DNA from: Amoebophrya sp. A120
Lineage: Eukaryota > Protista > Dinoflagellata
NCBI GenBank assembly: GCA_905178155.1
Contig: CAJINV010000003.1
Span: 1,191,560-1,255,559 of the forward strand
Length of the DNA: 64,000 bases
Direction of reading: 5' to 3'
Position numbers and translations under genes: made by a program. Positions 1,541-64,000 of this stretch are shown here, piece after piece; positions within the stretch are counted from its first letter, which is position 1; every line of letters starts with the position of its first letter. The notes below the pieces were generated by a model. It was not told where the DNA came from. It did no database searches and saw only the letters and a program-made list of their open reading frames with translations.

Positions 1541-1559
1541 ACCTTACTCGGCAAGAGCT

Positions 1560-38960: not shown

Positions 38961-41900
38961 TCACTGATAGATCGAGTTGTCGTGGTCGTGCTGCTTTTGC
39001 GCATCACCTTGCCTTTCCCGCTTCAGCAGCGGCAGGTGATCGACGACGGTCGTGGAATTCTTTCCAGCCCCAATCGTGAACTCATCCAGCAGCCCATCCT
39101 CTATCCAACGGGCCATGCGCTCATCGTGACCTGCGTTGAAGATTGAGAAATTATCCATTTTGCTTGTTGAGATGAACATGATGATCCGAGAGTTTTTTAC
39201 AACGACGTCATTGGGGTGCTTGTTGACAGGGCATCAAGCAGAAATCACGATAGTGTACTATCAACAGCATTCATAAAACGTCTTCTCAGACTCCGTCACA
39301 AAGAAACAAAAAAATACTCTTTTTGAGCCTAAGCAGCTCCTCCTCGAGCAATTTGATCTTGTCTCCGGACTCTTCCAACACTTCCGCGTGTTCTTCCGCC
39401 ACGGATTCGACCACCGCAACGCGGGACTCGACCAGGTCGAGCCGCTCCATTTCTTGCTGCACGGTCAGCGTGACGATCGCGATGATGTCCTGGTAGTTCA
39501 CGGCCTTGTAGTCGGCCCGGTTAGACTCCACGACGAGCGACGGGTACAGTTGCTCGAGCTCTTGCGCAATGAAACCGAAATAGAGTTGCTTCGACTCCCC
39601 GGACTGCTTCAGTTGGAAGCTTACCGGGTTCAATTTTCGGAACAGGCTGGAAACGATATCCTTACCGGTTTGCTGCTGTCCTGCCGCGACATGATCCGTG
39701 GTCACAAGCGCAGTGCTGTTGCTCGAAGCTTTCAGCCTGTTGTATAGCGATATGGAACGTGGATTTGATATTACTCTTGCGCTGTTGGTTTCAGAAGAAA
39801 TGAAGAAACCAAGATGTTTGGAAAAAAAACGTAATACTGCTAGACCATCCGGAGTAAAAAAACCAAGAAAAATTTCAAGTACCCTGCATGTTGTGCCGCG
39901 GAGCTCTGGTCGAGCAGGCTTTCGTACAGCGGACGAATGTTCTTCTTCAGTCGGACATCGGACGTTGCCGGGATACTTGAGTCGGAAGCCCAGCTACCGT
40001 GCAAGATATTGTTGGTGCCACTGGAAGCGGCGCTGTTTTGAGGTAAGGTGATGAATATTTGATTAGATTGGGATGAATCAAACTCGCATACAAAAGCTGG
40101 TGGTGAAAAAGAAAAACTGATTTTAACGAACAAAACAAATCCAAAGTTTCAGTACTGCAACGTCATGCGCCTGGTCGAAGCCCACGAGCCTACTACTGCG
40201 CTGGTCTGAGCGTAGAACGCGTATGCGGTGTTGACAGCATTGTCCGTGCCGCCCACGTACTTGATGTAGTTGCCCTTGTTCACGATGTACGTGTACTGTC
40301 CCAGGACGGTGGACCCAGCAACAGAGAGACCTATCGTTTTGAGAATTGATTTATTTTTTTCTCATGCGGATGATCTTTTTTTTCTGTAGTTTTGCATCCA
40401 ACTAAGAAAGGCGCTTATAGGATTGTCTTGACTGTCGTGAAGAATCTGAACGCTTAGGTAGTTAAAACAAGAATTCTTCATTTGTACTGCTTCCAAGGCG
40501 CTTGAAGGAGCGGACGGAGCACGCTGACCCCACGCCGACGAAGTCCAGGACGGACACGGCCTTTCCAATGCGACTGAAGGACCGCAGCGACATGCTGCTA
40601 CCTAGCGACATTGCTGTCATCACGCTGACGGAGCTGCCAGTAGCCTGGATGGAGCCCAAGCAGGAAAGTGTAGATCCCAGGCGCAGCATCGCTCGGGTAG
40701 AAACGGCACTACCCAAGTGGAGGAAGTTCAGCACCTGTTTTGTTTTATTTGGGAAAAAGGATTTTTGGTCGTTATTCATCGATTTGTTGCCCATAATAGC
40801 ACACATGTCAGCAAGGATGATTTTTCGGAAAGCGGCGTAATGTCTGCACCATTCAACAAAATCCTAAAATTCAGCAGGATATTTTTACCGATAGCCTGCT
40901 GCCGCAGCGAGTTAGTCCACGGACGGACAAAGCACTTCCCAACTGGGTGCTATCCAGGATCGAAGTAGTTCCTCCAAACCTGTGTATTGTGAATTTTGAA
41001 AAAGTAATTCAGAAAAAGAGCAACATCACCACACACGCTACAAAAAAGCCCTTTACTTTTGGTTTAGTACTGCAGCTAATGTTCTTGCACAAATAGCCGA
41101 AAAAAATACCTTGCGAAGGATCGGAGCGAAAGCGCGGATCCGACTTGCAGCGAGCCAACAAGGGACAGCCCGCCGTTAGCAGCGTTGGTGGTGCAGATGC
41201 CCTTCACACTCAGTCCGGATCCTAGTCGCAAGAAGCTTCTCATGGACACGGACGAGCCCGCGGTGATGAAGTTCAAAACCGAGAAGTTGCTTCCAAATTT
41301 CGCCGTCCCGCGCAGACTGATCGTGGAACCCAGGCACGTGGCCTCCAACACGCTCAGCTTTCCGCAGGTGCTCTTACCCATCACGCTGGCCCCGCTTCCG
41401 AGGCGAGCGAACTGCCGAATGGACAATCCCGAACCGAGGTTCACGAAGTCCAGCACGCTGCAGCGCGAGCCCATGCGAGCGAACGAACGGATCGACAAGC
41501 TGGACGCCAGGGTCATGGTTGCGGTCACCGAAATCTTCAGGCCCGAGATGGTCTGTCGTGGCATTTTTTGGGAATGGGAGATAGGAGCTTGAGTAGTAGA
41601 TCAGCTTCACTTTGGACATCTACTTCTTGGGTATAACTTATGCAGCACATGACACTGGTTGAAAACTTGCCCTTTATCAGCAAGCAGGAAAACCAAACAC
41701 AAAAACTTATGCGAAAAATACCGATCCGATATTCAGATTTCCGGCAGTCGACAGGGACGAGCCCAGCCGTGCGAATCCGCGGATGCTAATCGCACTGCCC
41801 AGGCTTGCGTAGTCCAGGACAGAGACGTTCTGCGCGAGGCGTGTCATGGTGCGCATACTGAGCGTCGAACCCAGTGTCAGGCAATCCAGAACGGAATGTT

Positions 41901-44900
41901 TACCACCGAAGCGTGCGAAACTTCGCAGGGAGAGGTTTGAACCTGTCAGTTTGGAGCAATAATGTGGTTTTTATCCAGTACCTCCATAGCTAGGTAGAAA
42001 CAAGCCAGAATCTATTAAGCAAGGAATGAATAGCATCATCGTCATGAAGTTGAAGAGTGAAAATCGAAAACAAATCCCAAGAAAGCAATACCCAGATTAG
42101 CGAAGCTGCAGATCGATGCGTGCCCGGTCATCTGCACCGCTCTTCGGAGAGACAGGTTGCTGCCCAAAGACAGGAAGTCTAACACGCTGGCACGAGAGCC
42201 GACCTTGGCGACCGCACGGACGGAAACCGAGCTGCCCAAGTTCACGAACTGGAGCACGCTCATTTTGCAAGCGGCCCGCATGCCGTGTCGCAGCGACAAT
42301 GTCGAGCCTGTGATGAGTAGAGTTTTATGACAGTGAAAAATCTTCGTTGTGTCACCACTTGTTCTCCTTTCGACTCATGCAAAGAAAAGTCATAGATCGA
42401 GATCCGAAAAAGAAACTGTCAAACAGCACTATCATGAAAAACAGAAACATCATCATCAAATCAAACACTTACCTAACACGACCGAGCCGAGAACGCTCAG
42501 TTTCGAGCACGATCCGACGGCTGCCAGACCATGCACACTGACAGAGCTGCCGCAGCGGGTGAAGCTGCGCACGGAAAGCGACGAGGACATGTGCACGAAG
42601 TCCAGAACGGAGAGCGTCTTGCCCAGACGAGCGTAGCTGCGCAGACTGCAACTGGATCCGATATTCACGTAGTCAAGCACACTGCACTTACCACCTGACA
42701 CCATGCCAGTACCACGGAGGGAAACACTGCTACCGAGCGCCAAGAAGTCAACGACCTGTGTTGAAAAGTTTTGGTATTTGGATGAATCCATGTGATGCCG
42801 ATAGACGTATTCTTGCGAACTTCTTGAAGCGAGTTCAAGACTTCATCGTCGTTTGGCTTATTGTTATTTACGGAGTAAATCAATTATACCGATGCTCTGC
42901 CGCCGACTCTAGCAAAGCCTCGGACGGAGAGGGACGATCCGATGTTGGTTCGGTTTGCGATAGACAGAGCCCGCATCACCCGCGCCTTGTACAGTGTACC
43001 TGTATTTGGTTTTAGGATTGGCTTGTTTTTCTGGGTTTTCATCATTTTGCAATTGAAATCTGAATTCATCAGGAGACATTATTTGCGAAGCCGAAAACTG
43101 ATAGCGTATCACAGACAAAAATCAGCAGTTTCTGTAGACACGTACCTGTGGAGTGCACCGAGAAGGCAGAGCCCAGGCGCAGGTAAGTGCGCAAGGACAT
43201 TGAGGAGCCCAGCGTCATCATGTCGAGGACGCTGCATCTGGATCCGCATTTAAACGCGCCGCGAATCTGTGGGTTTATTTTTGGAAGTGGTTTCGTTTTT
43301 TTGCCCATGCAGTGTCCTACTGATTGCTGCTAGCATGTTGCTTAAGGATGGTTGAGGAAAGTTGAAGTTCGGTCGAGGCACGGAAGATGAAGATAAACTG
43401 AATCAAAAAAAAAGTAGCGAGTACCGATAGTGACGATCCGAGGCAAGCCTGCTGCAGCACCGATGCGGAACCAAGGCCAACAAAGTTGCCGAGTGCAGAG
43501 ACGCCAGAGCCGAATCTCGCGCAAGCGCGAACGCTGAGAGCGGATCCGCAGTGGACGAAGTCTAGCACGGACGCGACGGCACCTGTTTGGTTTTTTTGGT
43601 TGAATAATTCGCTTTTACATTTACCAGAGAGCGGAGCATCTTCACTCACCATTTTTTCGAATCGGAAGAACCTGAATCAAAGTGCAAGCACATAGATTTA
43701 ATATGCCGCGAACAACCAGAAGCTACATCACAAGAAAAACAAACAAAGTAATACCCATTCTGCCCATGGAGCGGAGCGAGAGGGCAGAGCCGACGTTCAA
43801 CTGCGTGAGCACACTGACCTTCGACACGGAGCCGAGGTTCACCAAGCCCCGCACCGAAACGCTGGATCCGAGGCGGCTGTAGCTTCGCAAAGACATGGCC
43901 GAACCAATGTTGACCAGGTCGATGACCGACAGTGCTCCGCCAAACCGTGCGTGCGTCCGGATGGACATCGAGCTGCCCAGCATCAGCATGTTGAAGATAC
44001 TGGCGCGGCTTCCGATGCGTCCAGTGTTGCGCACACTCAACGTGCTGCCGATGGTCAAGAAGTCGACGATCGAACAGCGCGAGGAAAGCCTCGCGGTGCT
44101 GCGTAAAGACAGGCTGCTGCCGAGCGAGACGCTATCAGTCACCGAGAGTTGTTTCGACGACCGAATGGCCCGGCGCACGCTCAGCGAGCTGCCCAGGTTG
44201 ACGAAGCTCAGAATCGAGCACGACTCGCCGAGGTAACCGAAGTTGCGCAGCGAGATGGAGGATCCGAGGTGCGTGAACTGGATGATGGACACCTGGGTAA
44301 CGGACGATACGCGCGTCAAGCCGACCGCGCTGATCGAGGAGCCGAACCGCGCGAAGTTACGCAAAGACAGCGAACTGCCAATCTCCATAAACTTCAGGAT
44401 CGAGATGTTGCTACCTAAACGGCCGGCACTCCGCAGGGAGAGGGCGGACCCGAGGTAAGCGCCGTCCAGGATGGAGATGTTCGAAGCCACGCGCCCGAAG
44501 GAACGGAGGCTGAGCGAGGAGCCCATGGAGAGCATGTCCAATACCGACATCCGTGATCCCGCCTTGGCGTAGCTGCGCAGGGACAATGAAGAGCCGCAGT
44601 GAACCGCGTCGAGCACCGACATCGCGCCGAATAAGGTCGTCTTCGAGAACACGGACGTCGCGGAACCCACACGGCACATGGACCGCAGGGAGACGGACGA
44701 ACCGCATTGGCTGAACTGCAGAATCGACAAGTTGCCGGCCACGCGGCACGACCTGCGTACGCTGAGCGAACTTCCCAAATGCACCTGCTCCAGCACAGAA
44801 AGTTGGCCGGACATGCGGCCCTGGGACAGCACCGAGAGACTGGACCCGAAGCGGCCGACCGCACGGACGGACACGCACGATGCCATGCACACGAAGTTCA

Positions 44901-47900
44901 GCACCGACATGCGTTCCGCGAACCGTGCCTGCGATCGCAACGACATGGAGGACCCGAGGTGGACGAAGTTCATCACGCTCGTCCGCTGCAGCGATCCGGC
45001 CTGCTGGACGCCGTGGACGCTGAGACTGCTTCCGAACCGCATGTAGGACCGGATACTCAAAGCGCTGCCCAAGTTGGCGAAGCACAGCACCGAAACCGCA
45101 CTGCCGAACCGCGCCGTGCTGCGGATCGAGAGGGAGCTGCCCAGGTTGACGGAGTCCAGGACGGAAGTGGTACCGCCTAAACGCGCCATGCTGCGCAGCG
45201 ACATGGACGAACCGAGCGTCGCGAACGACAGGACGGAGGCGTAGGAGCCGACACGAGCGAGTCCGCGTAGGGACGTCGAGCTACCGAGCGCCAAAAAGTC
45301 TAGCACCGAGATTCTCGAGCCAACCCTCGCCATGGAGCGGACAGAGACCGCAGAGCCGAGGTGCGCAAAGGTCAGCACGCTGACGAATTTGCTGACCTTG
45401 ACTGCGGACCGCACGGACAGGCTGGATCCCAGGTGCGCGTAGCCGATCACCGACGTCTTCAGGCAGCTGCCGACAAAGCCTAAGCCGTGTGCGGACAAGC
45501 CGGAGCCGACCCGCGCAAATTGCCGCACGGAGACGGAACTTCCGAGAGTCAGGCAATCTAAGATCGACGCGCGCGAGCCGAACCGGCATACACTTCTGAT
45601 GCTGCAGCTGGAGCCGAGCATCGCGAAGTCCAGAACCGACGCGTTGCCGCCACACTTGACGAAGTTGCGCATGGACAGCTGGGAGCCGAGATTCAGGAAG
45701 TCCAGCACACTCACCCGGTCGCCGAGGCGCTGCTTGTTGCGCACGGAGAGAGAGGAGGATAAAGTCGTGAAGTTCAGCACCGAACACCGATTTCCGACCT
45801 GGAGTTTTCCGACCACGGAGGCACTGCTACCGACACGCAAATACTGGCGCACGGACATGGAGGAACCCAACGCGAAGTGGTTGAGCACCGAGCAACGGCT
45901 GCTGAGCTGCACGGCGGCGCGGATACTCATCGAGCTGCCCAAATTCAAGAAGTCGAGCACCGACGCGCGGCCACCGACCCGGCCGTGTGACAGGACGGAC
46001 GCGGAGCTGCCAATGCGCACGTACGCGCGGAGACTCAAGGTGCTGCCGCAGTTGAACATGTTCAGCGCCGAGATGGCCGAGCCGAACCGCCCGCAGCTGC
46101 GGATGGACAAAGTGCTGCCGCACGAAACGCAGTCCAAGACGGACAGCATTCCTCGGGATTGCACCAGGCCGCGCAACGATACGCTGCTGCCCAAATCCAG
46201 GAAGTCCAGGACGGACATGCGGGATCCGAAGCGGCTCGCCGTGCGCACGGACAAACCGCTACCCAATGCGACGAATTGCAGTACACTTGCCGTGCCAGAG
46301 CACCGCGCGAGCCCGCGGAGCGAGAGCGCCGAGCCCATGGTAACTGAGTCGAGCACGGAGAGGTCCTTTCCAAGCTTCGCGAAGGACCGGAGAGACAGCG
46401 AACTTCCAATTGTCACGGACCCAATCACCGAGGTCTGGAAGATGGAGCCGCACGCGACGAAGCCGTTGACGGACAGACCAGAGCCGAACCGCGAGAACGT
46501 GCGGCAACTCAAGGCGCTACCCAGACAGGCGAAGTTCAGCACCGACATGTTGGCTCCTGTTCTTGCGGTGTTGCGCAGGGACAGAGACGACCCGAAGTAC
46601 ACATAGGACAACACCGAGGCCGCCCCACACACCTTCGCGAAGTTTCGCATGCTCACGGAGGAACCCAAGTGGGCGAAGGACAGCAGCGACATGTGGCCGG
46701 CGACCTTCACCTTGCTGCGCACGGAGAAGGAGGACCCCAAGTTGGCGTAGCTGAGAACGCTGCAGTGCTGGCCGACCTGCGCATCCCCGAGCACGGACAT
46801 TCCGCTAGAGATTCTGGCGAAGGCGCGGAGACTCACCGACGAACCGAGGTTCAGGCAGTCCAGGATCGACACGCGGGAACCGCACCTTAGTGTGTTCCTG
46901 ACGGAGAGTGTGGAACCTAGATGCACTTGTTCTAGAACTGACGCGTTCTTTCCGACCGGCAGTTTTCCCATCACCGACATGCTCGACGAGCACCGGGCGA
47001 AATTCCGCAGCGACATGCTGGAGCCGAAGATGACCGCGTCCAGGATACTGCACTTGCTGCTCAAGCGGGCGAACGACCGCAGGGAGAGGGAGGAGCCGAC
47101 CTCCAGTTGCTGTGCGATCGAGAGCCTTTGCAATGAGCCGAACGCGGAGAACCCGTGCACGGACAAACCGCTGCCCACCCGCAGGAAGGACCGGACGGAC
47201 ACGGAACTTCCGAGACAGACCGAGTCGAGCACCGACATGGTGGCGCCGAAGCGAGCCAATGACCGCAGCGACAGCGACGAGCCGACTTGCAGTTGCCCGA
47301 CGAGACTCATGTTGCCGCACACCTTCATGCTTCCGGACACGCTGATGCCGGAGCTCAACCGAGCGAACTGGCGCAGCGACAGAGCAGAACCCAGGTTCAC
47401 GTAGTCTAAAACGGACGCGTAGGAACCGATGCGGACGTAGCTGCGGACGGACAATGAGCTTCCCAACGACGCGCACTGAATCACGGAGCACTTGAACGCC
47501 GAGCCGACACGCGCCAGACCCATCAGCGAGCAACTGGACCCTGCACGCACGTAGTTGCGGATCGATAGACTGCTGCCGAGGTTCAGGAAGTCCAGCACGG
47601 ACACACGTTCCCCGAAACGGCCATACTTCCCACGGACAGACAGGGAGCTTCCCAACACCGCGAAGCCGAGGATGCTGCACTGGCCACCGAACTTACCCGG
47701 GCCGAACGTGGATAGGCTGCTGCCGAATCGCGCGACCGCACGGATGGACACGGCGGAGCCGAATAATGCGAAGTCCATCACGGACAGTGCCGAACCGCAC
47801 CGAGCGAAGCTGCGGAGAGAAACGGAGCTGGAAACGTGCACGTAGTTGATCACCGAGCAGTTGCATAACGAGCCCAGGCGCGAGATGCCCATCACGGAGA

Positions 47901-50900
47901 GCCCGCTTCCCAGCCGCACGGCCGTACGGACGGATAAAGAGGACCCGACGCTGACAAAGTTCAGCACTGAGAGACAGCTGCCGATCTGGGATTTTCGCCG
48001 TAGTGAGAGAGAAGAGCCCAAATTGACGAACTGCACCACCGACATCATGCCGCCCAAGGCGCTGGTGGCCCGCAGCGAGACGGAGCTACCAATATGCAGG
48101 TAGTCGAGAACACTGCAGTGTTCGGACACGCGCAGCCGGCCCTTGACGGACAGGGAGCTGCCCAGTCGGGACACGGAGCGCACGGACAGCGAGCTGCCGA
48201 GCGTCAAGTAATCCAGCGCCGACATGCGTGAACCCATGGCGGTGAAGCTGCGGAGCGAGCAGGACGAAGCCAGGTTCAGGAAGTCCAGGACGGACAACCG
48301 GTTGCCACAGCTAGTCTGCAGGTTTCCAAACAACGACACTCCACTGCCCACGCGGCTGAAGCCGCGGAGCGACAACGCGCTGCCGCAACTGGCGAAGTCG
48401 AGTACGGAGACCTGTCCGCCGAGACGTGCGAAGCTGCGCAGGGAGAGTGTGGAGCCGACGTTGAGCTGCGAGTACACGGAGAGGCGTTGTCCCAGCTCCG
48501 TGTTGGCCCCGATGCTGCACCGGTTTTCGCCGCCAATTCCGAGCGCAACTTTCCCCCCTGCAACCGACAAACCGCTTCCGAACCGCACGAAGCTGCGGAC
48601 CGAGAGCGCGCTGCCGAGACCCACCGCGTCCAGAATGGACATGCAGCTGCCGCTGCGGGTGAAGCCGCGGAGCGACATAGTGCTGCCGAGGTGCGCGAAC
48701 TGCATCACGGACATGCTGGTGCCCAGTCGGACCGCACTGCGGACGCTCAACGAGCTTCCGACCATGGTGAAGTTGATGATACTGCAGCTCTTGACGGAGC
48801 CCACAACCGTGCTGCCGAAGACGCTCATGGTGCTACCGAGCCGGACAAAGGCGCGCACGCTCATGGCCGAACCCAGTTGGACGTAGTCCATCACCGACAA
48901 CGCGTTCCCGGACCGCGCCATGCTGCGCAGGGAAAGCGAGCTTCCGAACGAGATCGAGTCGAGGATGGACACGTGCGATCCGAACTGCGCGAACGAGCGG
49001 AGCGACATCGAACTGCCGATGTGCACGAATTCCATCACGGACACGTTTGCCGCCGCGCGGACAAAAGACCCCCGCACGGACAAACTAGATCCTAACGTGA
49101 GGCAATCCAGTATTGACGCGCGGCAACCGAGACGTACGTTCGGGCCGCAGACACTCATAGAACTTCCCAGTCGCGTGAAGGCCCGGAGGGAGACACTGCT
49201 GCCCAAAGTGATGCTGTCCAGCACCGACATCTTGGAGCCGAGACGCATCACGGCCCGGATCGAGATGGACGAGCCGAGCGAGACCGCGTCCAAGGCGGAG
49301 AAGGAGCCCTGCACGGTGAGCTTGTCAAAGACGGAGCACGAGGACCCGAGCCGGACGAACTGCCGCAGCGAAATTGCCGATCCGACCGCGACGTAGTCGA
49401 GGACGCTGGCGTTCGATCCCATGCGCGTGAAGGACCGCATGCTGACGGAGCTGCCCATGGTCTGCCAGTTGATGATCGACAACTTCATGCAGCTACCGAC
49501 GCCAAGCCGCCCGTACACGCTGAAGCCGCTGCCGCAGCGAGCGGTCGCGCGCAGGGACAGCGCGGAGCCGAGATTGGCGAAGTTCAGCACGGAGACGTTG
49601 CTGCTCAGCCGCGAGACGCCGCGAAGGGAGACAGAAGAGCCGAGGTGGCAGCACGCGAGCACGGACAAGCTTTGCCCCAGTCGCGCCTCTCCCTTGACAC
49701 TCACGCTGCTGCCGATGCGGACGAATTGCCGCACGGAGAGGGACGAGGAGAGCAGCGTGAAATCGAGGATCGAAAAATCCTTACCCGCCCGGACGAAGGA
49801 CCGCACGGACAAGGAACTTCCCAGCGTGACGAGGTCCATGACGGACATCTTCAGCATGGAACCGGCAACGCCCAAGCCATGGACGCTGCAGGCGCTACCA
49901 ACTCTGACGAACTGGCGGACCGAGACGGTGCTGCCCAGGTTGACGCAGTTCAGGATGCTCAAGGTCGTGCCGAGTTTTGCGGACCGGCGCAGCGAGAGGC
50001 TGGAGCCCAGGTTGACGAAAGCTAAAACGGACATGTTGTCACCCACGCGGGCGCGACCCGTGACGGACAGCGAGGAGCCCACGCGCGAGAACCCGCGGAC
50101 GGACAAGCAAGAGCCCACGGCAATCATGTCGAGCGTCGACAGCGCGGAACCCATGCGAGCGAAGCTGCGCAACGAGACGGAACTTGCCATGTTGACAAAG
50201 TCGATGACGCTGGACCGCAAGACCGAGCCCGTATTGACCAGGCCGTGCACGGAGACGGAACTGCCAAAGCGCGAGAACTGACGGATACTCAACGCGGATC
50301 CCAGCTGCGTGTACGACAACGCGCTGATCGCGCTCCCGCATCGGGCGTAACCGCGCATGCTCACACTGGATCCGAGGTGCAGAAAGCTCAACACCGACAT
50401 CTTGCTGCCAAACTGCGCGGCCTTGACGACGGACGCGGACGAGCCCAGGCGCACGTAGGTACGGGCGGACAGGGACGACCCGAGGTGCACGAAGGACAAG
50501 ATGGACATGCTGCTGCCGAAGCGAGCGATCGACCGCATCGAGTAGCTGCTACCGATCTGCATCGCACCCAGAATGGAGAACGACGCACCGACGTCCATGC
50601 GCTGCGTGGACTGGCCGAAGATGCTGCATCCGGAGCCGAGGCGCGTGAACTGCCGCAGCGACAGGCTGCTGCCGAGGCTGGCCGCGTCGAGGACCGAAAG
50701 CGACGAGCCGAGGCGGGCAAAGCTTCGCAGCGACAGCGAGCTGCCCAGGTGGCACTGCTGGATGACGCTCAGCCGCAAGCAGCTGCCGGTGGCCGCCATG
50801 CCCAGCGCAGATAGGTTCGACCCGACGCGGACGAAGCTGCGGACGGAGAACGAGGAGCCAATCTGCGACATCATCAGGATCGACACGGCGGAGCCCAAAC

Positions 50901-53900
50901 GCGCGGTGCAGCGGCACGACATAGAGCTTCCGAGGTTGCAGAAGTCCAGCACCGAAGCACCCAAGCCGGCCCGAATGCGACCGAGGATCGAGACCGAGCT
51001 GCCGACGCGGGCCATCGCCCGGATGGACACGCTGCTACCCAAGTTCAAGAAGTCGAAGATCGACATGCGCGATCCCAAGCGCACCTGCGTGCGCACCGAA
51101 ATCGCACTTCCGATGTGCGCACACCAGGCCACGGAGATGGAACCCGCCAGACGCGCGAGTTGTCCCACGGAAACCGAGCTACCCAACCGCGCGACCGCAC
51201 GCATGGACAGCGAACTGCCGACGGTGGTGAAGTCCAGCACGGACAACGTCTTTCCGAAGCGAGCCGTGGACCGAACAGATAACGAACTGCCCATGATGGC
51301 CCACTGGATGACGGATTGCTTCATGCAGGAGCCGCAGTTGAACTGGCCCTTCACGCTCATGCCGCTGCCGATGCGCACGAAGTTGCGGACGGACAGGGCG
51401 GAGCCGAGTGTGACGAAGTCCAAAACCGACATCGAACTCGACATGCGCGAGTAGCTGCGCAACGACACCGTGGAACCCACGTTCAGGAAGTGGAACATCG
51501 ACACCGACTCGCCGAACCGACCGAAGCAGCGGATCGACATCGAGGATCCTAAACTGAGGAAGTCGAGCGTCGACATCTTCGAGCCGAGTTGCGCGATGGA
51601 TCGGACCGACAAAGAGCTTCCAATCGCGATTTCTTGCATGATGGACGTCTTGCCGGCAATGCGGACGCGGTCCCCGCGAACGGACAGACTGCTGCCGCAC
51701 CGCATGTACGACCGCATACTGATCGAGCTGCCCAGGTTCACCAGGTTGAAGACGCTCAGCATGGATCCCGACCGCGACATGGCGCGAATCGACATGGAGG
51801 AGCCCAAGTGCAGGAAGCCCAGCACCGAGCACTTGTCACCACCGATCATCCGGCCGGTTAAACTGCAGGCGGAGCCCAATCTGGCGTAGTTGCGGACCGA
51901 CAAGGCCGAACCGACCGTCATGCCGTCCAGGACGGAGAGCATGCTCCCGATGCGCGCGAACGAACGCAGGGACAAGCTGCTCGCCACGTGCAAGAAGCCT
52001 TCCACCGACAAGCGGAAGCACGACGAGCACTGCAGCGTGCCGGACACGCTGACACAGCTACCCACCCGCAGGAACGAGCGGATGGAGACTGCGGAGCCGA
52101 AGCTGGCGAAGTTCAGCTGCGACAAGTGCCCGCCCATGCGCGACACCTGGCGGACGCTCAGCGAGCTGCCCAAGTTCGTGAAGCACAGCACCGAGGTGCC
52201 GCCGTACATCTTGGTCATCGCACGGATGGACAAGGAAGACCCGAGGGTGGTGTGCATCATCACGGACAGTGCGTCGCTGATGCGCGTCTTGCCGCACACG
52301 GAGAGACCGCTTCCGACCCGGGCGGCAGATCTCAGGGAGAGTGAAGAAGCGACGCTGACGAAGTCCATCACGCTGGCGTTCTGGCCGAGCCGCGCGTGCG
52401 TGCGCAGCGAGAGGCTCGAGCCCAAAGTGGTTTGCGCAACGACGGACAACGCGTAGAGCGAACCCGTGCGCGCCAAGCCCATGAAGCTGCATCCGGACCC
52501 TAACCGAACGTAGGACCGCACGGACAGCGAGGAGCCCAGGTTGGCGAAGCCGAGCATGCTGGCCGAAGTTCCAAAGCGCACTTGGTTCCGGATCGACAGC
52601 GAGCTGCCGAGACTGACGTAGTCCAACACGGAAAGCTTGCCCTGCAGCACGTTTTTGTTGGCCAGGTTGTCAGCGCACGACACGCTGAAGCCGGAGCCAA
52701 TGCGGAGGACCGTGCGCAAGCTCAGGGAGGAACCCAAAGCAAAGTGGTCGATGATGCTCATGCGCGATCCGCACCGCACCATGCTGCGCGTCGACAGGGT
52801 GGAGCCTAGCGTCACGAAGTCCAGGACGGACAGGTTCGAGGACAGACGGGCGAACGACCGCAGGCTGACCGAGGATCCAATGCCGACGTAGCTGAGAACG
52901 GACAGGCTGTCCCCGCACGAGCCGCGGCTGCGGAGCGACAAGGAGCTACCAATGGCGAGGAAGTCCATGACGCTCATGCGGGACACCGACCCGACGCACT
53001 GCAAACCGTGGACGGAGACGCTGGAGCCAATGCGCATGTAGCTGCGCATCGACAATCCGCTGCCCAAGGCACACATGTCCAGCACGCTGATGTCACCCGC
53101 AATGCGGCTGTACTGGCGAATCGAGACGGAGGACCCGACGTGGCACCATTGCAGCACGCTGGCCTTCATGCAACTGCCCATGTTGAGCAGGCCGCTGACG
53201 ACCAGAGCCGAGCCGCACCGCGAGTACGATCGCATCGAGAGACTCGAGCCCAGGGTCACGCAGTTCAAAACCGACATGGCCGAGGCAAATCGGGCGGTGC
53301 TGCGGAGCGACAAACTGCTGCCGGCGTGCGAGAAGCCCAAGACGGACAGGTCCATGCCCATTCGACTGGTGCCGCAGATGCTGCACGCGGAGGAGGAGCG
53401 GAGGAACGACCGAATGGAGAGTGAAGAGCCGATCGCCAGGTAGTCCAGTAGCGAAGCGCGGCTGCCCAATCTGGAGACGCTGCGTGTGGACATGCTAGAC
53501 CCGCACTGCATGAAGTCAATCACGCTCGCCCGCAAGCAGGACCCGACGGCGGTGAGACCGAACACGGACAAAGCTGATCCGACACGGCAGTAGTTGCGCA
53601 TCGAGAAGGAGCTTCCCATGCTCATGAAGTCCAGCGTCGACAACCGACTTCCGAATCGCGCCGACGCACGAATCGAGAGCGAGCTGCCGAACTGTGCGTA
53701 GTCAAGGAGGGAGACGTTGGCGTTGGCCCGCACCTTGCACCGCACGCTGAGGGCAGAACCTAAATGGATCTGCGAAAGGATCGACAATGAGTCGCCCATC
53801 TTGATACTCCCGAGCACGGACATGGAGGAGCCAACCCGGATGGCGGCCCGTACGGACAGCGTGCTACCGACGGAGGACATATCCAGCAGCGAAAATTTCC

Positions 53901-56900
53901 CGCCGACATTGACCGGGGCGTTGAAGATGGACAAGGCCGAGCCGCAACGTGCGTAGGCCCGCAGGGACAAGGAGGACCCAACCGTGATGAAGCTGAAGAC
54001 GCTGATGGCCGAACCGAAGCGTCCGAAGCTGCGCACGCTCATGGACGATCCCAGGGACATTTCCTGGATCACGGACATCTGGTACGCGGAACCGACACGC
54101 GCCAATCCCATGCAGGACAGGGACGAGCCGCAGCGAGCAGCGGCCCGAATGCTCAGCGAGCTACCGCACTGGCCGAAGTTCAGCACGGAGAAGCTCTTCC
54201 CCACCCGCACTTGCCGTCGCACGCTGAAGGACGAGCCGACCGCGGCGAAGTCCAGGAGAGACATCGCGCTGCCGAAGCGAGCCGTTGCGCGCAGGGATAA
54301 CGCGGATCCCATCGCCACGTTGTCGAGCACCGACAGGCCGCCACCGAGACGGGCAACCCCGCGGAGCGACAAGGCGGAGCCGAGCGACACATTCCCGAGG
54401 ATCGAGAAGCGATCGCCGGCACGCAGCGTGCTCCACACGCTTGCAGCGCTGCCGAGACGCGCGTACGCACGCAGCGACAGAGCGGAACCGCAGTGCGCAA
54501 ACTCCAAGTGTGACAGGGAGCTGCCGCACCGGACGACGGACCGCACACTGAAGCTAGAGCCGAACAGCGCCCAATCCAGCACGGAGCAGCCACCCATCGT
54601 TCGCGACGCACCCATCACGGACAGCGAACTGCCGATGCGGGCCACACTGCGGATGCTGAACGTGCTACCCATCTGCATGAAGTCCAACACGCTACAGTTG
54701 GAACCGAACCGAGCGGACGATCGCACAGAGATGGTGGAGCCCATGGAAACGAAGGACAAAACGCTGACGTTGTCGGAGACCCTGGCGGAGGCGCGCAGGG
54801 AGATGGACGAGCCCAGATGGAAGCAGTCCAGCACGGATACCTGGCTTCCGAACTTGGCGAACGACCGGACGGACAAACTGCTTCCGAAGTTGCTCAACCC
54901 GATCACGGAGAGGCGGCACACGGAGCCCACGTTGAACATACCCGCGACGGAGAAGCCGGAGCCTACGCGCGAGTACTGGCGGAGACTGAGCGACGAGCCC
55001 AGAATCAGCGTGTCCAACACGGAGCACCTGGATCCGAACTCAGCCATGGCGCGAATTGAAACACTGCTGCCGAGCGACATCATGTCCAACACGGACAATC
55101 GGACTCCGAAGGACGCGACAGCCTCCTTGCTCACGCGGTTGACGCTGAAGCCGGAGCCTAAGCGCGCCACGGCCCGCACAGACAATGCGGATCCCATGTA
55201 CACGGCGTCCAGAACGGACAAGGTCTTGCCCATCTTGGTGAACATGCGCAGCGACATGGAGCTGCCGAGGGTGGTTTGCGCCAGGACCGAGCAACCGCCG
55301 CCGACCCGCGCGCTCTGCAACAGGGAAAGCCCAGATCCGATGCGAGCGAAAGCGCGGACCGAGAGGGAGGATCCCATCATCAGGTGGTCAAACACGGAGC
55401 TGACGCTGCTCATTCGCGCGAACCCGCGAACGGAGCAAGTCGATGCGAGGTTCGTCATCTCGATCACCGACAGTCGGTAGACGGAGCCCATGGCACACCG
55501 TCCTGCAACGCTGAAGCCGGAGCCCGCACGGACGTACGAGCGCAGGGACAGACTGCTACCACAGTCGGAGAAGTTCAGGATGCTCAGGCTGCCGCCGAAC
55601 CGGGCGGTCGCACGGACCGACACGTTGCTGCCAAGATGGACCGCGTCGAGCACGGATAAACCGCCTCTACCGCCAATCACGTTGCTCTTTCCGGTGCAGC
55701 TGGCGATCGAAAGCGCGCTGCCGAATCGGGCGTAGTTGCGCAGCGACAACGAGGACCCAAAGGCCGTGTAGTTGAGGATACTGCACTGCGAGCCGAAACG
55801 CGTTGTGGAACGGATCGACAGACTAGAGCCGATGTGCGTCGCACCCACGATAGATAGCTTCTTCATGGAACCAACCTGCGTCAGACCCATCACGGAGAAA
55901 GAACTGCCCAGGCGCGTGAAGGTCCGCATGGACACGGACGATCCCGCAAGGGCGAATCCGAGAACGCTGAGGGCGCTTCCGAACCGGGAACCGCCTCGGA
56001 GGGAGATGGCGGAACCGCAGGACATGCTGTCCAGCACACTCAGCATGGAACCGATTCTGCTCAAAGATCGCAGAGATAAGCTGCTTCCGCAAGCGATCTG
56101 CGCCAGCACCGACACGTCATTTCCGAACCGCGACTGCTGGTTCACCGAGAACGAGGACCCGAGACGCACGTATTGGCGAACGGAAAGGGCGGAACCGAGC
56201 GAAACCATGTCCAGGATCGAGAACTTGCTGCCGAAGCTGACAGTCGACCGCACACTCATGCTGCTGCCGAGCGTGACGTAGTCCAGGACGGAGACCTGCG
56301 CACCCAATCGCGTGAAGGTGCGGATCGACATGGACGACCCGACGGCCACCGAGCCCAGCACGGAGAGCTGCGCACCCGCTCGCATATCGGCGAGAACGGA
56401 CATAGTGGACCCGACGCGGGCGTAACCGCGCAGGGACAAGCTCGATCCCAGGTTCACGAAGTTGAGCGTAGATAACGAGCTTCCAAGGCGCACCGTGGAC
56501 CGCAAGCTGACGGAACTGCCGATGTTCACGTATTCCAGCACAGACAAACAGTTGCCGGCCTTGAACGCCAACCGCAGGGACAAGGAGCTTCCGAGTTCCA
56601 CGTGGGAGAGGACGGAGAGTGCCGCTCCCATCCGGGTACTGTCCTTGACGGATAAAGACGAGCCGATGCGTGCCACGCACCGCAAGGACAACGAGCTGCC
56701 CAGGGTGAACATGTCCAGCAGGGTGGTGCCGCTGGCGAACCGCGCAAAGGACCGGACGGAAAGCGAGCTCCCGAGGCACAGGCGATCCAGCAACGAGGTC
56801 TTGCAGACGGAGCCGAAGGCGGCCAATCCGTGGACCGAGACCCCGCTGCCCAGTCGAGTCATCGCACGCACGCTGAGCGCGCTGCCCATGTTCATGAAGT

Positions 56901-59900
56901 CGAAGACTGAGGTCTTCCCGCCGAACCGCGTGAACGAGCGGCAGGACAGGCTGCTTCCCATCTGGACAAACTGGATCACGGACACACCTAAAACGGACCC
57001 GACCTTCGAGGCCCCGAGCACGCTCAGCGAAGAACCGACACGCACGACGCTGCGAACGGAAAGCGAAGATCCCAAGTTGAAGAAGTCCAAAACCGAGACC
57101 TTGCTGCCCGCGCGGGCGTAGGAGCGCACGGACAAACTGCTTCCGAGGCCGGCGAAGTTGAGGATGGACATCTCGGACCCAAGACGAGACGCGCTGCGGA
57201 GGGATAAAGCGCTACCGAGCGCGACCGACTGAATCACGGACATGGTCATGGTGGAGCCGCACGCAAAGAGTCCGAACAGGGACACGCTGGACCCCAGGCG
57301 AGCCACTGCGCGAAGACTTAAGCTTGACCCGGTGTTCGTGAAGTCCAGAAGCGACAACGCCGATCCCATCTTGACGGAAGCGCGCACCGAAAGAGAGCTG
57401 CCCAGGTGGAGGAAGCTCAGGACGCTTGTGCGTCCGCCCATGCGGAGGTCTTTGCCAAACACGCTCATCGACGATCCGAGGCGGATGTAGTTGCGGAGAC
57501 TGAGCGACGACCCGAGCACCACCGCGTCCAAAACGGACAACTGGCTGCCGAAGCTGCCGCAACTGCGCATGGACAGCGAACTTCCCAAGTGCAGCCACTT
57601 CAGCACGGACACGGACTCCGAAATCTTGCAGGCGCCCTGCAGGCTCAAGCCGCTGCCAACTCTGGCGAACTGGCGGACGGACATGCTGCTTCCCATGTTC
57701 AGGAAGTCCAGGATCGAAACCCGACTGCCGACTTCCGCGAACGCGCGGACACTCAGGGACGAGCCGAGCGTGGCGAAGCCGAGCAGACTGGCGGCGTACA
57801 CGGACCCCGTGCGCAACAGGCCGTGGATGCTCATGCCGCTTCCACAACGGGCGCAGGCACGGACGCTCATCCCACTTCCGATCTGCGCGAAGTTGAGAAT
57901 CGAGATCTTGCTGCCGAGACGGACAAACTGCCGGACGGACACCGAGCTGCCGATCTCGCACTGGTCGATGACGGAGAGGTTCAAGCAGCTGCCCACCTTC
58001 GTCAAGCCGAGCACCGAGCAAGCGGACCCGACGCGCACGAAGTTTCGCAGGGAAATCGAGCTGCCTAAAGTCACCATGTCCGACAAGCTCATCCTGCTTC
58101 CCAACCGCACGTGGCTGCGCACCGAGAAGCTGGACCCGAGGTTCACGCTGTCAAGCGCAGAGAGCTCCTTACCAATCCGAGCGTAGCTGCCCGCAACTGA
58201 AAGGGAAGATCCGCAACGGGCAACCCCCCGGAGCGACAGCGAGGACCCGAGGTGCACGAACGCTAGCACCGAGGTGGCGGACCCGACCCGCGTTGCGGAA
58301 CGCAACGATAAAGTCGAACCCAGACTGAGGTAGTCCATAATCGACAGTGCACCCGCCATACTGTTCAACAAGGCGCCCGCGATGCTGCACGTGGAGCCGA
58401 TTCGCGTGGCCGCCCGAAGAGATAACGAGCTGCCCATGTTCAGGAAATCGAAGATGGACATCCGACTGCCGACGCGCGCGTACGAGCGGACGGAGATGGT
58501 CGAGCCCAAGTGCAGGTAGTCCACCATGGAGACCGCGAACGCGGAACCAATCTTGGCGATGCCGTGCACGGAGACGCCGGAGCCGCACCGCATGTAGGAG
58601 CGGATCGACAAGGCGGACCCGATGGTCATGAAGTCCAGCACGGACTGGCGCTCGCCGATGCGCGTGAAACTTCTGACAGACACCGCGCTACCGAAGACCG
58701 CGAAGTTTGTCACGGAGAGTCGCCCGCCCAGCGCACCGCTCATGCGCACCGAGATCGAGGATCCGAGGTTCAAGAAATCGAACACCGACATCGCAGACCC
58801 GAAGTTGGCGAAGGACCGGACGCTCAGCGAGCTGCCCAGCATCAGGTACTCCAGCACGGAGCAGCGGCCGCCCACCCGGGCCTGCCCGAAGGCAGACATC
58901 GCCGAGCCCGCACGAATCCAGTTGCGCACAGAGAGGCCCGAGGCGAGCGTCGTGAAGTCCAGCACCGAGATCGACTTGGAAAACCGCGTGAACCCGCGGA
59001 GGGAAACTGTGCTACCGCAGTGAATCTGCCCGAGAACACTCGCGTCCGCGCCGACACGCATTTTGTTGAACAGCGACATGCCGCTGCCCAGCCGGACGCA
59101 GGCGCGTGTGGACAGCGAGCTGCCGAGATTCAAGAAGTCCAACACGCTCGCAGACTCGCCCATGCGCGTGAAGGAACGCACACTCATGGTGCTCGCCGCG
59201 AGCGTGGCGCCGATGATCGACAGCCGGTACACGGAGCCGACCGCCGTACGGCCGTGCACGCTGAGACCGGACCCGACTCTTGCGAATTGCCGGATCGACA
59301 CACTGGACGCGACGTTCACGAAGTCCAGCACCGATAATCTTTCGCCAAATCTCGTAGTGGAGCGCACGGAGAGCGAGCTTCCGCAAGACACGGCATCCAG
59401 GACGGAGACCATGCTACTAATCCTGGCCGAGCACGCGACGCTCATCGCGCTACCGATGCGGACGAAGTTCCGGACCGACACGGCGGACCCGAAGGTGGCA
59501 AAGTCCAGCGAGGACATCGCGCTGCCGCAACGAGCGAAGGAACGCAAGGAAACGGCGCTACCGAGAGTGACTAAATCCAGGATGCTCAAGCTCTTTCCGA
59601 ACTTGGCGAACGAACGCAGCGAGAAGCTGCTGCCGAGGTGCATCTGGCCGATCACCGACATGCGGTTCACGGAACCGAGGTAGGTCTTACCCATCACGGA
59701 GAGCGAGCTACCTAACCGTGCCTGGTTGCGGATGGAGATGGAACTGCCGCACTGCAGGTAGTCAAAGACGGACATCTGCGTTCCGAACCTGGCGCGCGGG
59801 TAGATGCTGAGACCCGCACTGGTACCGAACATGTCCACGTCGCCGTGCACCGACAGGTAGCTTCCGAGCCGGGCCATGCTGCGCAGACTGATGCTGGAGC

Positions 59901-62900
59901 CGAGGTTCAAGAAATCGAGCACGGAAAGGGAAGACCCTAGCCGGCCCAGACCGCGAACCGATAGTGAACTGCCAAGCAGCATGAAGTCCATCACGGAGGC
60001 GCTCATGCCCACTCGTAAGCCGGCGGTCAGCGACAGGGAGGACCCGAGTCGCCCGTATGCTCTCAGCGACAGCGCGGACCCCATGTTGGTGTAGTCCAAC
60101 ACGGACACCGCGGACCCGACGCGAGCGAAGGACCGCATGGATAAAGCGGATCCTAAATGTACTTGGCTCATCACGGAGAACAAGCCGGTAAGTCTTGCGT
60201 GCGCTCCCTGGACGGAGAACGACGAGCCGAACCGAATAAACGCGCGGACCGACACCGCCGAGCCAAGGGAGGCCATGTCGAGGACGCTGCAAGAAGAGCC
60301 GAGGTTCGAGTACGAGCGCAAGCTGACCGAGCTTCCGCAGTGCGCAAAGTCGATCACGGAAATCGCAAGCGCGCTGCCGACCTTGAACAGGCCGTGCACG
60401 CTCAACCCGCTTCCGATACGCGCGTACGTGCGAAGGGAGAGCGCGCTGCCCAGGTTCAGGAAGTCCACCACGGACATCGAGCTGCCGCAGCGAGACATTC
60501 CGCGCACGGAAAGCGCCGAACCGAAGGAAACTTGACTCAAAACCGACAGGCTGGCCGCAATCCGCGCGCTGCCGAAGGAGGACACGGCGGACCCGATGCG
60601 AGCGACTGAACGGAGAGAGCACGTGGAGCCCAGGTGCACGTAGCTGAGGATGGAGACCATGGACCCGATCCGCGCGCACTGCCGGAGCGAGCACGAGCTT
60701 CCCAGCATTGCCGTACCGATCACCGAGAGCTTCAGACAGCTGCCGAGCGCGAACTTGCCGTGCACGCTGAAGGCGCTGCCGAAGCGAGCGCACTGGCGAA
60801 TTGAGAGACTGGAGCCAAACATGGCGAAGTCCAGCACGGACGCCATGGAGCCGCAGGTGGCGCGGGCGCGGAGGCTCATTCCGGAGCCGAAGGACGCGAA
60901 GTCCAGGACCGAAAGGTTGGACCCGCAGCGACCCGTGCTGCGCACGGACAACGCTCCGCCGATGTTGGAGAACTCGAGCACGCTCATCTGGCTACCCATG
61001 CGCACGTGAGCGCGCACAGACAGCGAGCTGGCCAGGTGCGTTTGGTCGAGCAGCGAGAAGCGGCAACCGGACAACGCCATGACGGAAATCGCCGAGCCAA
61101 ACCGCGTGTACTGCCGGACGGACAGCGCCGAACCCATGCTGACGAAGCCGAGAATGGACAGGGCGGAGCCGCACCGACCAGACGCGCGCAGCGAACAGCT
61201 GGACCCCAAGGAGAAGTAGTCCGCGACGGAGACGCTGCATCCGATACGCGCGAAGCCGCCACCGAAGGCGCTCAACGAGCTGCCCAGTCTTGCCGCCCCA
61301 CGCAAGGAGAGAGCGGAGCCCATGGTCACGTAGTCCAAAACCGACATCGAGCCGCCGAACCGCGCGAAGCTGCGCAAACTCAAGGTGCTCCCGATGGACA
61401 TGGCGTCCAATACAGAGATGCTGTGCGTGCTTCCGAGGAACGCCAAACCGGCCACACTGCACCCAGAGCCGACACGGGCGTAGTTGCGGAGAGAAAGCGC
61501 GGAACCCAGGTTGATAGCATCCAGCACGGAGAACTTCGAGCCGAACCGAACAAACCCTCGAACCGACAGGCTGCTTCCGAGCGACACCTGTTGCAGAATC
61601 GAGAGCGGACTCTGCAGCACCGCCATCGCACCGGCAAGAGATAAACTGCTGCCCATGCGCGCGAACGCCCGCATCGAGAACGACGAACCGTAGCTGACGT
61701 AGTCAAGCACACTCAACGCGCCGGACAGTTTTCCGTATTGCCGCATGGAGATGGAGGATCCGAGAGATAAGTGGTCGAACACGGAGAGACGCTGTCCGAG
61801 TCTGGCGTAGTTGGCCACGGTTAGGTACTGCGACACGGTCACGTCGTGCAAGTTCGCCTTGGACCCGACGCTGATCGTGGAGCCCATACGGACGAACCCA
61901 CGCACGGACAACGCGGAGCCGAGGGACAAAACGTCGAACACGGAGGTCGTGGACCCGAACCGGGACATGCCGCGAATCGACAACGCGGAGCCCATGGCTG
62001 CCATGCCCACGACGGACATGAACTGCACCGAGCCCAACATCACACTTCCCGTAACGGACAGAGCCGATCCAATGCGCGTGAAGCTGCGCACGGAGATGCT
62101 GGAGCCGAGCGAGGCAAAGTTCAACGCCGACATGCACGAACCGAGGCGTAGACTCGAGAACGCGGAGAGCCCGGAACCCAGGCGGGAGACAGCGCGCACG
62201 GACAAAGTGCTCCCGGCATTCAAAAAGTCGAACATCGAGCACTGCGAACCGAATCTGGAAAGCGTGCGGATCGACAATCCCGATCCGACCTGACCCGCGT
62301 CGAGGAGAGAAATGCTGCAACCGCACCGCGAGTGTCCGAAGAAGCTCATCGAGCTGCCGACCCGGCAGTACGCACGGATAGAGAGCGAGCTCCCGAGCGC
62401 CACGTGGGCTAGGACAGACAGCGAACTGCCGAACCGACCGCACGAGAAGGTCGACAACGAGCTTCCCATCCGCATGAACCCGCGAAGACTCAAGGCGCTG
62501 CTCAGGTTGAAGAACTCTTTCAGTGAGAACTCGTCGCCAAACCGGATCTGGCCCTTGACGGACAACGCGGATCCCAGTCGAGCGAGCCCGCGGACCGAGA
62601 TGGCTGAACCCAAGACCATGAAGTCCATCATCGACAGCCCGCCCAAGCCGGAGCGCACCCGCGACTTGATGGAGAAGGAGCTGCCGATGCGCGCGTAGCT
62701 GCGCAGCGACATTGAGCTTCCGACCGTCACCGCCGCGAGGGCGGACATCTGGTTCGACAGCCGGCACCATCCGAAGAAGGAGACGGTCGAGCCAAATCGG
62801 GCGAAGGAACGCAGCGACAAACTGGAACCGATCGCCGTGGCCTCCAGCGCAGACAGCGAGCCGCCGAGTTGCGAGTTGGAGAACAGGGACAGTCCGGATC

Positions 62901-64000
62901 CGAGACGTGTGTACGCACGCAGCGACATGGAGCTGCCAAACTGTGCGCAGTTCAGAATGGACAAAGCGCCGCCTCCGTCCATGTGGGAGAACACGGAGAG
63001 GCAGCTGCCCATACGGGCATACCCTCGGAGAGAGAGGGAGCTGGCCATGCTAGCCAAGCCCAATGCGCTCAAACTGCTTCCCATCCTGACGCGGCCAAAC
63101 AGCGACATCGAGGAGCCGAACGACGCGATGGCGCGACAAGAGAAGGTGGAACCCAGTTGGAAGAAGTCCAGGACGCTCATTTCCGCTCCTGCACGCAGGC
63201 GCTGCGCGATCGAGCAGGCACTGCCGGCACGCAGGAAGGTGCGCAGCGAGATGCCGGATCCGAGGCTGATAGAGTCCAAAACGGACATTTCCGTTCCGAA
63301 CCGCGAGAATGCGCGAATAGATAACGCGGAACTCATGCCGACGAAGCTGAGCAGGGACAGCGAGCCGCCCGCACGCACGCTGCTCAGGCAGGAGACGGAG
63401 GACCCAACGCGCAAGAAGTTCCGGATGCTGTAACTGCTGCCGACCTGCGCGGTGTGCAACAAACTGCAACCGGACCCGCACCGCATGGCACCGTACATCG
63501 AGATGCTGGAGCCGATGCGGATGAACTGCCTCAGCGAGACACTGGACGCCATGGTGCAGAAGTCCAGTACACTGCAGCGAGAACCCATGCGAGACAACGC
63601 CCGGATGCTGAGCGACGACCCGACGTCCAGTTCCCCAAACACGCTGGCTTGCGTGCCGAGGCGCGCCGACGCATCGGGGCCCAAGGAGATCGAGCTGCCT
63701 AACCGCGCGAAGCTGCGGATGGACAAGCTGGAGCCCATGAATCCGAAGGACAGCACGGAGATCTCCGCACCTAGCCGCGAGTAGGCACGCAGCGAGCAGG
63801 AGCTCGCGAGCGCGCAGTAGTCCATGACACTGCAGGAAATGCCGACTTTGGCGTCGCCCAGGATGCTGAAAGAGCTGCTGACGCGCAGGTACGACCGCAA
63901 GGATAGCGAGGATCCGACGTTCAGGTAATCCAGCACGGACAGTTGGCTGCCGAACCGGGCGGTGGTGCGCAGCGAGCAGGAGGAACCGAGGTTCAAGTAA
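38961..64000 (-). CDS. Giant Ser-rich 12-aa-repeat protein with C-terminal Peptidase S74 (intramolecular chaperone autoprocessing) domain and coiled coil; 5'-partial, >=7,680 aa in window
   Basis: Exons >64000-43755, 43582-43425, 43266-43146, 42999-42890, 42755-42473, 42307-42092, 41942-41722, 41552-41110, 40979-40889, 40734-40488, 40330-40156, 40032-39883, 39736-39318, 39130-38961. All 13 introns are GT-AG and all phases match. Repeat GSSLSVLDFLNL/GSSLSLRSFARL. S74 motifs TSDVRLKKNI, LNPVSF, FGFIAQELEQLYPSLV, VNYQDII. Confidence 0.9.
39318..39962 (-). other. Peptidase S74/ICA domain plus coiled coil of the giant protein; predicted autocleavage Ser at codon 39962-39960
   Basis: S-D-x-R-x-K (SDVRLK, 39962-39945) matches the Ser/Lys dyad motif of endosialidase/MYRF-type chaperones. 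It is followed by GFIAQE and a heptad-rich helix VQQEMERLDLVESRV...LEEELLRLKK. Confidence 0.88.

Follow-up and report, generated by a model that had tools for sequence, protein, structure and literature searches.

What does a dinoflagellate parasite build with a gene so long that it leaves a 64,000-nucleotide window still open? The question is posed by a minus-strand gene of Amoebophrya sp. A120 that occupies positions 38961 to 63999 of the window (the whole 64,000-nucleotide stretch analysed here, from contig CAJINV010000003.1) and whose product joins a very long run of dodecapeptide repeats to a C-terminal S74 domain, a self-cutting chaperone also known as the ICA domain. The answer that we consider very probable is that three copies of the chain interweave as an O-glycosylated triple β-helical fibre of the kind recently described as TLP-12. 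The gene is a member of that already described family and perhaps one of its roughly 150 listed candidates. The inference from repeat plus ICA domain is not new, being in print with a structure for TLP-12; new here are the splice evidence, the intact Ser-Lys dyad and the near-strict alternation of two types of 12-mer.

The gene was modelled by coordinates as 14 exons (63999 to 38961, minus strand), which together give an uninterrupted frame of 7,682 codons and a terminal stop. Its features are as follows.

43755..63999, minus strand: exon 1 (the part within the window, open at its 5' end), 6,748 amino acids of GSxxSx7 dodecapeptide repeats.
40488..43582, minus strand: exons 2 to 10, the last ~630 amino acids of repeats; junctions present in run X4, five of them also in X5.
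43582-43425, 43266-43146 and 42999-42890, minus strand: exons 2 to 4.
42755-42473, 42307-42092 and 41942-41722, minus strand: exons 5 to 7.
41552-41110, 40979-40889 and 40734-40488, minus strand: exons 8 to 10.
40156..40330, minus strand: exon 11, which finishes the repeats and adds a short linker of non-repeat sequence, a similar linker being present in homologues P0001-P0003.
39883..40032, minus strand: exon 12, the LHGSW motif and the SDVRLK dyad, Ser7461-Lys7466, that opens the S74/ICA domain.
39318..39736, minus strand: exon 13, the S74/ICA core (GFIAQE, VNYQD) and coiled coil, matching PF13884 at an expectation value (E) of 3.9e-7.
38961..39130, minus strand: exon 14, C-terminal tail and stop codon; junction present in X4.
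37388..38960, minus strand: 3' untranslated region of ~1,573 nucleotides, as far as the X4 contig reaches, the part below 38600 being extrapolated from the length of that contig.

All 13 introns are of the GT-AG type, measure 123-187 nucleotides and have a G+C content of 33-42%, compared with 56-63% in the exons. Within the window the stop-free minus-strand frame extends from 63999 to 43726 and remains open at the 5' edge, as the preliminary description of this locus, made from the DNA letters, had stated; the stop codon of the gene lies at 38961. That description had also envisaged a spliced nuclear gene with 13 junctions and an S74 domain 11 introns past the big exon, and both points were borne out: run X4, classed as RNA by guess, contains all 13 junctions at the exact positions of the model, each at the depth of one 9,053-nucleotide contig, and SDVRLK was found in exon 12. 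The same contig also spans 44001-48430 of exon 1. Since it carries all 13 junctions, the repeat exon and the S74 exons belong to one transcript; transcription of the S74 exons apart from the repeat exon, the outcome that the preliminary description had named as fatal to its reading, is contradicted, and a separate S74 gene was rejected on the same ground. The joints listed for metatranscriptome X5 include five of the 13 junctions; those listed for the X9 contig, which is DNA and runs unbroken through the gene stretch, include none. Runs X6-X8, whose word shares are small, did not enter the analysis. One extra X4 joint, of 2,142 nucleotides and with 20 letters on one side, looks like a repeat mismatch. 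Over 44001-64000, the exon-1 region shows zero differences from a 40,626-nucleotide contig of run X1.

Two trivial origins for so repetitive a frame were rejected. A DNA-satellite artefact is contradicted by the absence of any repeated DNA 24-mer from exon 1 and by a G+C content at third codon positions of 0.83. A pseudogene is contradicted by the 7,682 codons without a stop and by the presence of just 7 Pro residues, compared with 4-10% Pro in most degenerate homologues.

The repeat region comprises the first 7,383 amino acids, where a profile parse recognised 597 twelve-residue units covering 97% of the length; the ~600 copies and the near absence of Pro (7 residues in the whole region) reported previously therefore stand. 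Ser makes up 22% of the exon-1 residues. Among these units G1 is conserved in 81%, S2 in 74% and S5 in 99%, and the spacing from one unit to the next is exactly 12 in 530 of 596 cases. The strict pattern GSxxSx7 is matched 406 times; 500 shuffles gave 37 matches on average and never more than 52. The unit had been described as two six-residue halves, a division that must be revised: autocorrelation reaches 0.27 at lag 12 and 0.33 at lag 24 but just 0.10 at lag 6, giving periods of 12 and 24, and the pair of examples originally quoted are alternating kinds of 12-mer. Two kinds of unit are in fact present, namely 250 of R-type (GSSLSLRSFARL), with Ser2 in 100%, and 347 others (GSSLSVLDFVNL), with Ser2 in 55%. 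R-type units adjoin one another 3 times, compared with 104 in shuffles, and in 16 chosen homologues such neighbours account for 1 of 166 adjacent pairs. This near-strict alternation constitutes a 24-residue super-repeat.

Downstream of the repeats come the short linker, LHGSW, SDVRLKKNI (Ser at residue 7461), GFIAQE, VNYQD and a coiled coil, so that each element of the C-terminus listed in the preliminary description was located in the spliced product. The Pfam family Peptidase_S74 (PF13884), whose presence it had foreseen, matches exon 13 with 30.7 bits against a cut-off of 22. The Ser7461-Lys7466 dyad in SDVRLK (residues 7461-7466) is intact and has i/i+5 spacing, the same as in MYRF (S587/K592) and endoNF (S911/K916) (PMC8326128). 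In the coiled coil that follows the domain, 14 of 19 heptad a/d positions are hydrophobic. ICA domains trimerise through such a C-terminal coiled coil and cut before the Ser using the Lys five residues on (PMC8326128). Like the transcription factors MYRF/MrfA, the gene is eukaryotic and carries an ICA domain whose Lys follows the Ser by five residues, but it differs from them in what surrounds this domain: no transmembrane segment follows (peak 19-residue hydropathy in the C-terminal part is 0.94), and upstream lies a micrometre-scale repeat rather than a DNA-binding domain.

The resemblance to phage proteins is similarly partial. As in phage endoNF, 6f45 and 8jov, the chain ends, behind a triple β stalk (here a predicted one), in an S74 domain that has the Ser-Lys dyad and a coiled coil. 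A homologue profile matches two phage tail-fibre chains of solved structure, 6f45 (E 2.9e-9) and 8jov, both matches being confined to the chaperone region. The 14 PHROG tail families that match exon 13 are likewise restricted to the chaperone region, while the repeat matches just three PHROGs, all of unknown function. In contrast to phage tail fibres and tailspikes, the protein has a far longer stalk and is encoded in the nucleus by a gene interrupted by 13 spliceosomal introns, and no close relative of the repeat was found in viral contigs: pattern scans with 500 amino acids of repeat, which can reach close relatives only, yielded 7 matches in viral and 138 in metagenome contigs, no relative being confirmed. 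The earlier label of 'phage-tail-fibre-like' is consequently apt for the chaperone and the type of fold but not for the repeat sequence, and a viral gene with a phage-homologous stalk was rejected, the gene being spliced and nuclear and the tail PHROGs matching the chaperone region only. A tree of S74 domains, which the preliminary description had proposed for comparison with phage, bacterial and giant-virus sequences, was built from 57 domains and 131 columns (rows with fewer than 100 upstream amino acids were excluded, and the threshold used wrongly classed three repeat fragments as non-repeat); long branches were joined in it and no origin could be assigned. As a side observation, the closest Atlas look-alikes of the feature at 43756-45255 (minus strand) belong to unnamed clusters with few recorded members, mostly giant viruses (score 0.95-0.96), a lead only, as the recognition value of 818 lies below the 2,300 mark.

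For the repeats themselves, TLP-12 provides the structural template. Cryo-electron microscopy at 3.0 Å (10.1101/2025.09.30.679562, a 2025 preprint) revealed three interwoven dodecapeptide-repeat chains forming a triangular β shaft, with a rise of 9.6 Å per 12-residue repeat and O-glycans on residues 2 and 5. The same preprint ties TLP-12 to ~20,000-residue Amoebophrya proteins with a C-terminal ICA domain, including A0A8J1ZHD7 of Amoebophrya sp. A120 (19,853 amino acids, 1,263 GSxxSx7 repeats, C-terminal ICA), and gives ~150 candidates in 6 alveolates, with relatives in the free-living Polarella and no function known for any. The gene described here shares with these proteins the GSxxSx7 repeat with conserved G1, S2 and S5, the C-terminal ICA domain, a giant size (at least 7,682 amino acids) and alveolate relatives, and no difference in kind from the candidates was found; strict motifs occur at 0.055 per residue here and 0.064 in A0A8J1ZHD7, under counting rules that may differ. 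In the accessible text of the preprint, splicing, the dyad and two alternating repeat types are not described. Its methods record that the first symmetry, 19.4 Å and -23.3 degrees, was later halved. A rise of 19.4 Å would correspond to 24 amino acids and would fit the alternating 12-mers seen here, although refinement can also yield a doubled symmetry by chance.

The homotrimeric fibre suggested in the preliminary description thus appears strongly supported by the TLP-12 structure with its identical GSxxSx7 repeat, while the likely O-glycosylation and the membership of a known family had been missed. In the mechanism that we propose, the chain would enter the secretory path, as TLP-12 and known ICA domains suggest, and coiled coil and ICA domain would trimerise, aligning the three chains with one another from their C-termini onwards. 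Each 12-mer would contribute two short strands on two faces of the triangular shaft and lengthen it by 9.6 Å, and glycans on Ser2 and Ser5 would coat the strongly basic repeat core, whose net charge is +493. O-glycosylation at these two positions is likely; the acceptor serines are present in the repeats, the glycans themselves being predicted. The Ser7461-Lys7466 pair would release the final 222 amino acids, and the exon-11 linker is the likely fibre tip remaining once the chaperone has been cleaved. The length of the fibre would be set by the length of the gene.

A different fold, in which each chain forms a β-solenoid alone, resembling the hexapeptide left-handed β-helix (LbH), and S74 does no more than hold three solenoids together or stays uncut, finds some encouragement in the Pfam Hexapep family, which scores 30.1 bits over 1,000 residues against a cut-off of 27, no single stretch passing, as well as in weak LpxD matches (E 0.0076) and in a monomer model of the repeat that is all β. 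We nevertheless regard it as very unlikely: the period is 12 and 24 rather than 6, the solved TLP-12 with the GSxxSx7 motif is interwoven (10.1101/2025.09.30.679562), the dyad is intact, and SDxRxK recurs in 99 of the best 150 S74 relatives, many being fragments. The canonical hexapeptide left-handed β-helix of LpxA/LpxD was itself rejected in view of the low autocorrelation at lag 6 and of a Hexapep match that is a sum of weak stretches.

If gene length indeed sets fibre length, the part of the gene beyond the window matters. Within it, 7,682 amino acids were read directly, and the repeats reach 7,383, as the figure of more than 7,300 given previously implied, but the whole protein is probably about twice its in-window length or more. 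The X1 contig reaches 16,003 nucleotides past the window edge, equivalent to ~13,017 amino acids if the frame is open throughout. It is likely spliced, because its extent 3' of 44001 (4,623 nucleotides) equals that of the spliced X4 contig, as does its word share, 0.66 in both. An 82,302-nucleotide X9 contig carries same-strand repeat-like pieces as far as 32,483 nucleotides past the edge, or ~18,509 amino acids or more if these belong to the same gene. A protein of ~13,000-19,000 amino acids or more is therefore likely, in line with the ~20,000 stated for the Amoebophrya TLP-12 candidates. With 0.96 nm for each unit, the part inside the window would measure ~0.57-0.59 micrometres and the whole 1.0-1.6, so that the original estimate of 0.3-0.6 micrometres is probably too low, given 9.6 Å per 12 residues and the fuller length of the gene.

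Several considerations weigh against the fibre reading. Trimer, glycans and cleavage are all predicted from TLP-12 and known ICA domains, and the N-terminus, with any signal peptide, lies outside the window. A monomer model of 240 repeat residues was all β but weak (predicted local distance difference test, pLDDT, 55), that of homologue P0003 was also weak (pLDDT 53), and neither yielded a Foldseek match in the PDB at E 0.001 or better. TLP-12 was collected from pond fresh water rather than from an identified producer, so that the paper's own link to genes rests on motif and fold (10.1101/2025.09.30.679562). Runs X1 and X4 are both classed as RNA by guess, and two sets of raw RNA with the same species label, X13 and X14, contained 3 and 12 matching reads, respectively, in ~3 million reads each: either expression is not general or the strain differs. 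Finally, a tandem paralogue could be the source of the distant repeat pieces in X9.

How widely such proteins occur bears on what they do. A 1,000-residue repeat query matched 37 proteins, 15 of them with PF13884, and of ten relatives looked up the species-labelled ones came from Vitrella brassicaformis, Symbiodinium and Cladocopium. With exon 13 as query, 1,459 representatives were found at E 0.001 or better; 45 of the 99 SDxRxK-bearing proteins among the best 150 have at least 100 amino acids upstream, and in 34 of these 45 at least two repeat motifs are present. For the giant homologues (3,711-11,809 amino acids), 0 of 801 candidates scored. The parasite-specific invasion role once suggested is not supported, given relatives in symbiotic Symbiodinium and Cladocopium, in Vitrella and, according to the preprint, in free-living Polarella.

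Some of these relatives deserve separate mention. P0005, P0010, P0016, P0021 (Symbiodinium) and P0025 have the same repeat with 9-10% Pro and without SDxRxK, and look like decaying copies. P0034, P0036 and P0040 are VIT/vWA-domain proteins whose matches extend over 13-14% of the repeat query; P0034 contains a short dodecapeptide-repeat run. The P0158 cluster includes a 7,103-residue protein from ENA assemblies that has several S74-like stretches and whose repeat is of another kind, rich in Thr, Gly and Asn. Repeat-like pieces are also borne by further records of the same organism, for example a 24,292-nucleotide X9 contig, and by many loose ends in X9, X1 and X4; the organism likely has more genes of the TLP-12 type.

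As to function, we tentatively favour a flagellar hair or similar surface filament, with a confidence that stops a little short of even. The predicted 1.0-1.6 micrometres matches the length of myzozoan flagellar hairs, the tinsels of Perkinsus olseni being ~1.3 micrometres long, a value printed with an implausible spread (PMC7398310). Alveolate hairs are thin and non-tubular and are made in the perinuclear space (PMC3989336, PMC3377698). A precedent for a glycofibre is the Chlamydomonas mastigoneme (Mst1/Mstax), like the fibre predicted here a giant repetitive glycoprotein (PMC11725842); its flagellar location is the proposed analogy, and no homology is claimed, since its chemistry is that of hydroxyproline-rich polyproline II, in contrast to 7 Pro in 7,383 residues here. 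Counting against a hair is that the case is made from length, biogenesis and taxon range only. In the literature searched, whose coverage takes in few subscription journals, no link of TLP-12-type fibres to flagellar hairs was found; the main text of the preprint, as far as accessible, contains no word beginning 'flagell' and no mention of a signal peptide, and the accessible parts of two other papers do not mention S74 (PMC6176090) or TLP-12 (PMC12956863).

The same glycosylated triple β-helix might instead serve, in line with the preliminary description, as an extrusome or host-attachment filament, for instance as one of the twisted filaments of the trichocyst head. The head of the bipartite trichocyst is ~1 micrometre long (PMC3377698) and built of twisted filaments (PMC5609580), and Amoebophrya trichocysts are thought to aid host attachment (PMC9478091). 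The Vitrella brassicaformis homologue P0020 (CEL94087.1) couples a TSP1-type domain (PF19028) ahead of its repeats, without SDxRxK, and is either an adhesive variant or a gene-model fusion. The family is, however, present in non-parasites, and a dense glycan shell would suit a filament that is always exposed. Symbiodiniaceae and Vitrella are not known to have trichocysts. On balance an extrusome filament seems unlikely.

Somewhat more doubtful still is a secreted glycofibril of the cell coat, mucus or cyst matrix, with no fixed organelle and a part in protection or carbon storage. It would accommodate the finding of TLP-12 free in water, for which its authors propose extracellular carbon storage or host-parasite roles (10.1101/2025.09.30.679562), and the paralogues suggested in the same organism by loose ends and other records. 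A single frame of ~40-55 kb without DNA-level repeats, together with a register-setting chaperone, suggests by contrast a fibre of defined length and not a bulk slime.

Taking up the flagellar hair again, we would venture a fuller proposal, held as a conjecture with distinctly less than even confidence: TLP-12-type proteins may supply the core that is still missing for the thin flagellar hairs found in dinoflagellates, perkinsids and related groups. A single giant gene would act as ruler, and a phage-type chaperone would zip three chains into a glycan-coated triple β-helix 1-1.6 micrometres long and then cut itself off. The true repeat would be of 24 amino acids, an Arg-rich and a Leu/Asp 12-mer, which would explain the rise of 19.4 Å initially obtained for TLP-12.

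Elsewhere in the window, 1-11500 is a GC-rich (~70%) minisatellite block, with an 81-bp unit at 1-1453 and, from ~1625, nested units of 44, 65, 109 and 174 bp among the matches listed; its long open reading frames look like by-products of the repeats. At 31359-33842 (minus strand) an uninterrupted frame of 828 amino acids encodes a ChaN/Tiki haem-uptake domain (PF04187, E 4.3e-12) followed by a methyltransferase (PF13847, E 1.9e-24), an unusual fusion. An exon of a Neuralized/SPRY-domain gene lies at 34240-34713 (minus strand).

With architecture and fold already reported for the family, the surprise offered by this gene is modest. According to one paper, the intracellular precursors of myzozoan hairs were identified by shape only (PMC3377698). 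The locus now provides a gene model backed by a transcript, together with a predicted cleavage site and a predicted fibre length, with which a simple test can be made of whether TLP-12-type fibres are these hairs. It would also show plainly how a folding chaperone of phage type can serve a eukaryotic fibre on the micrometre scale.

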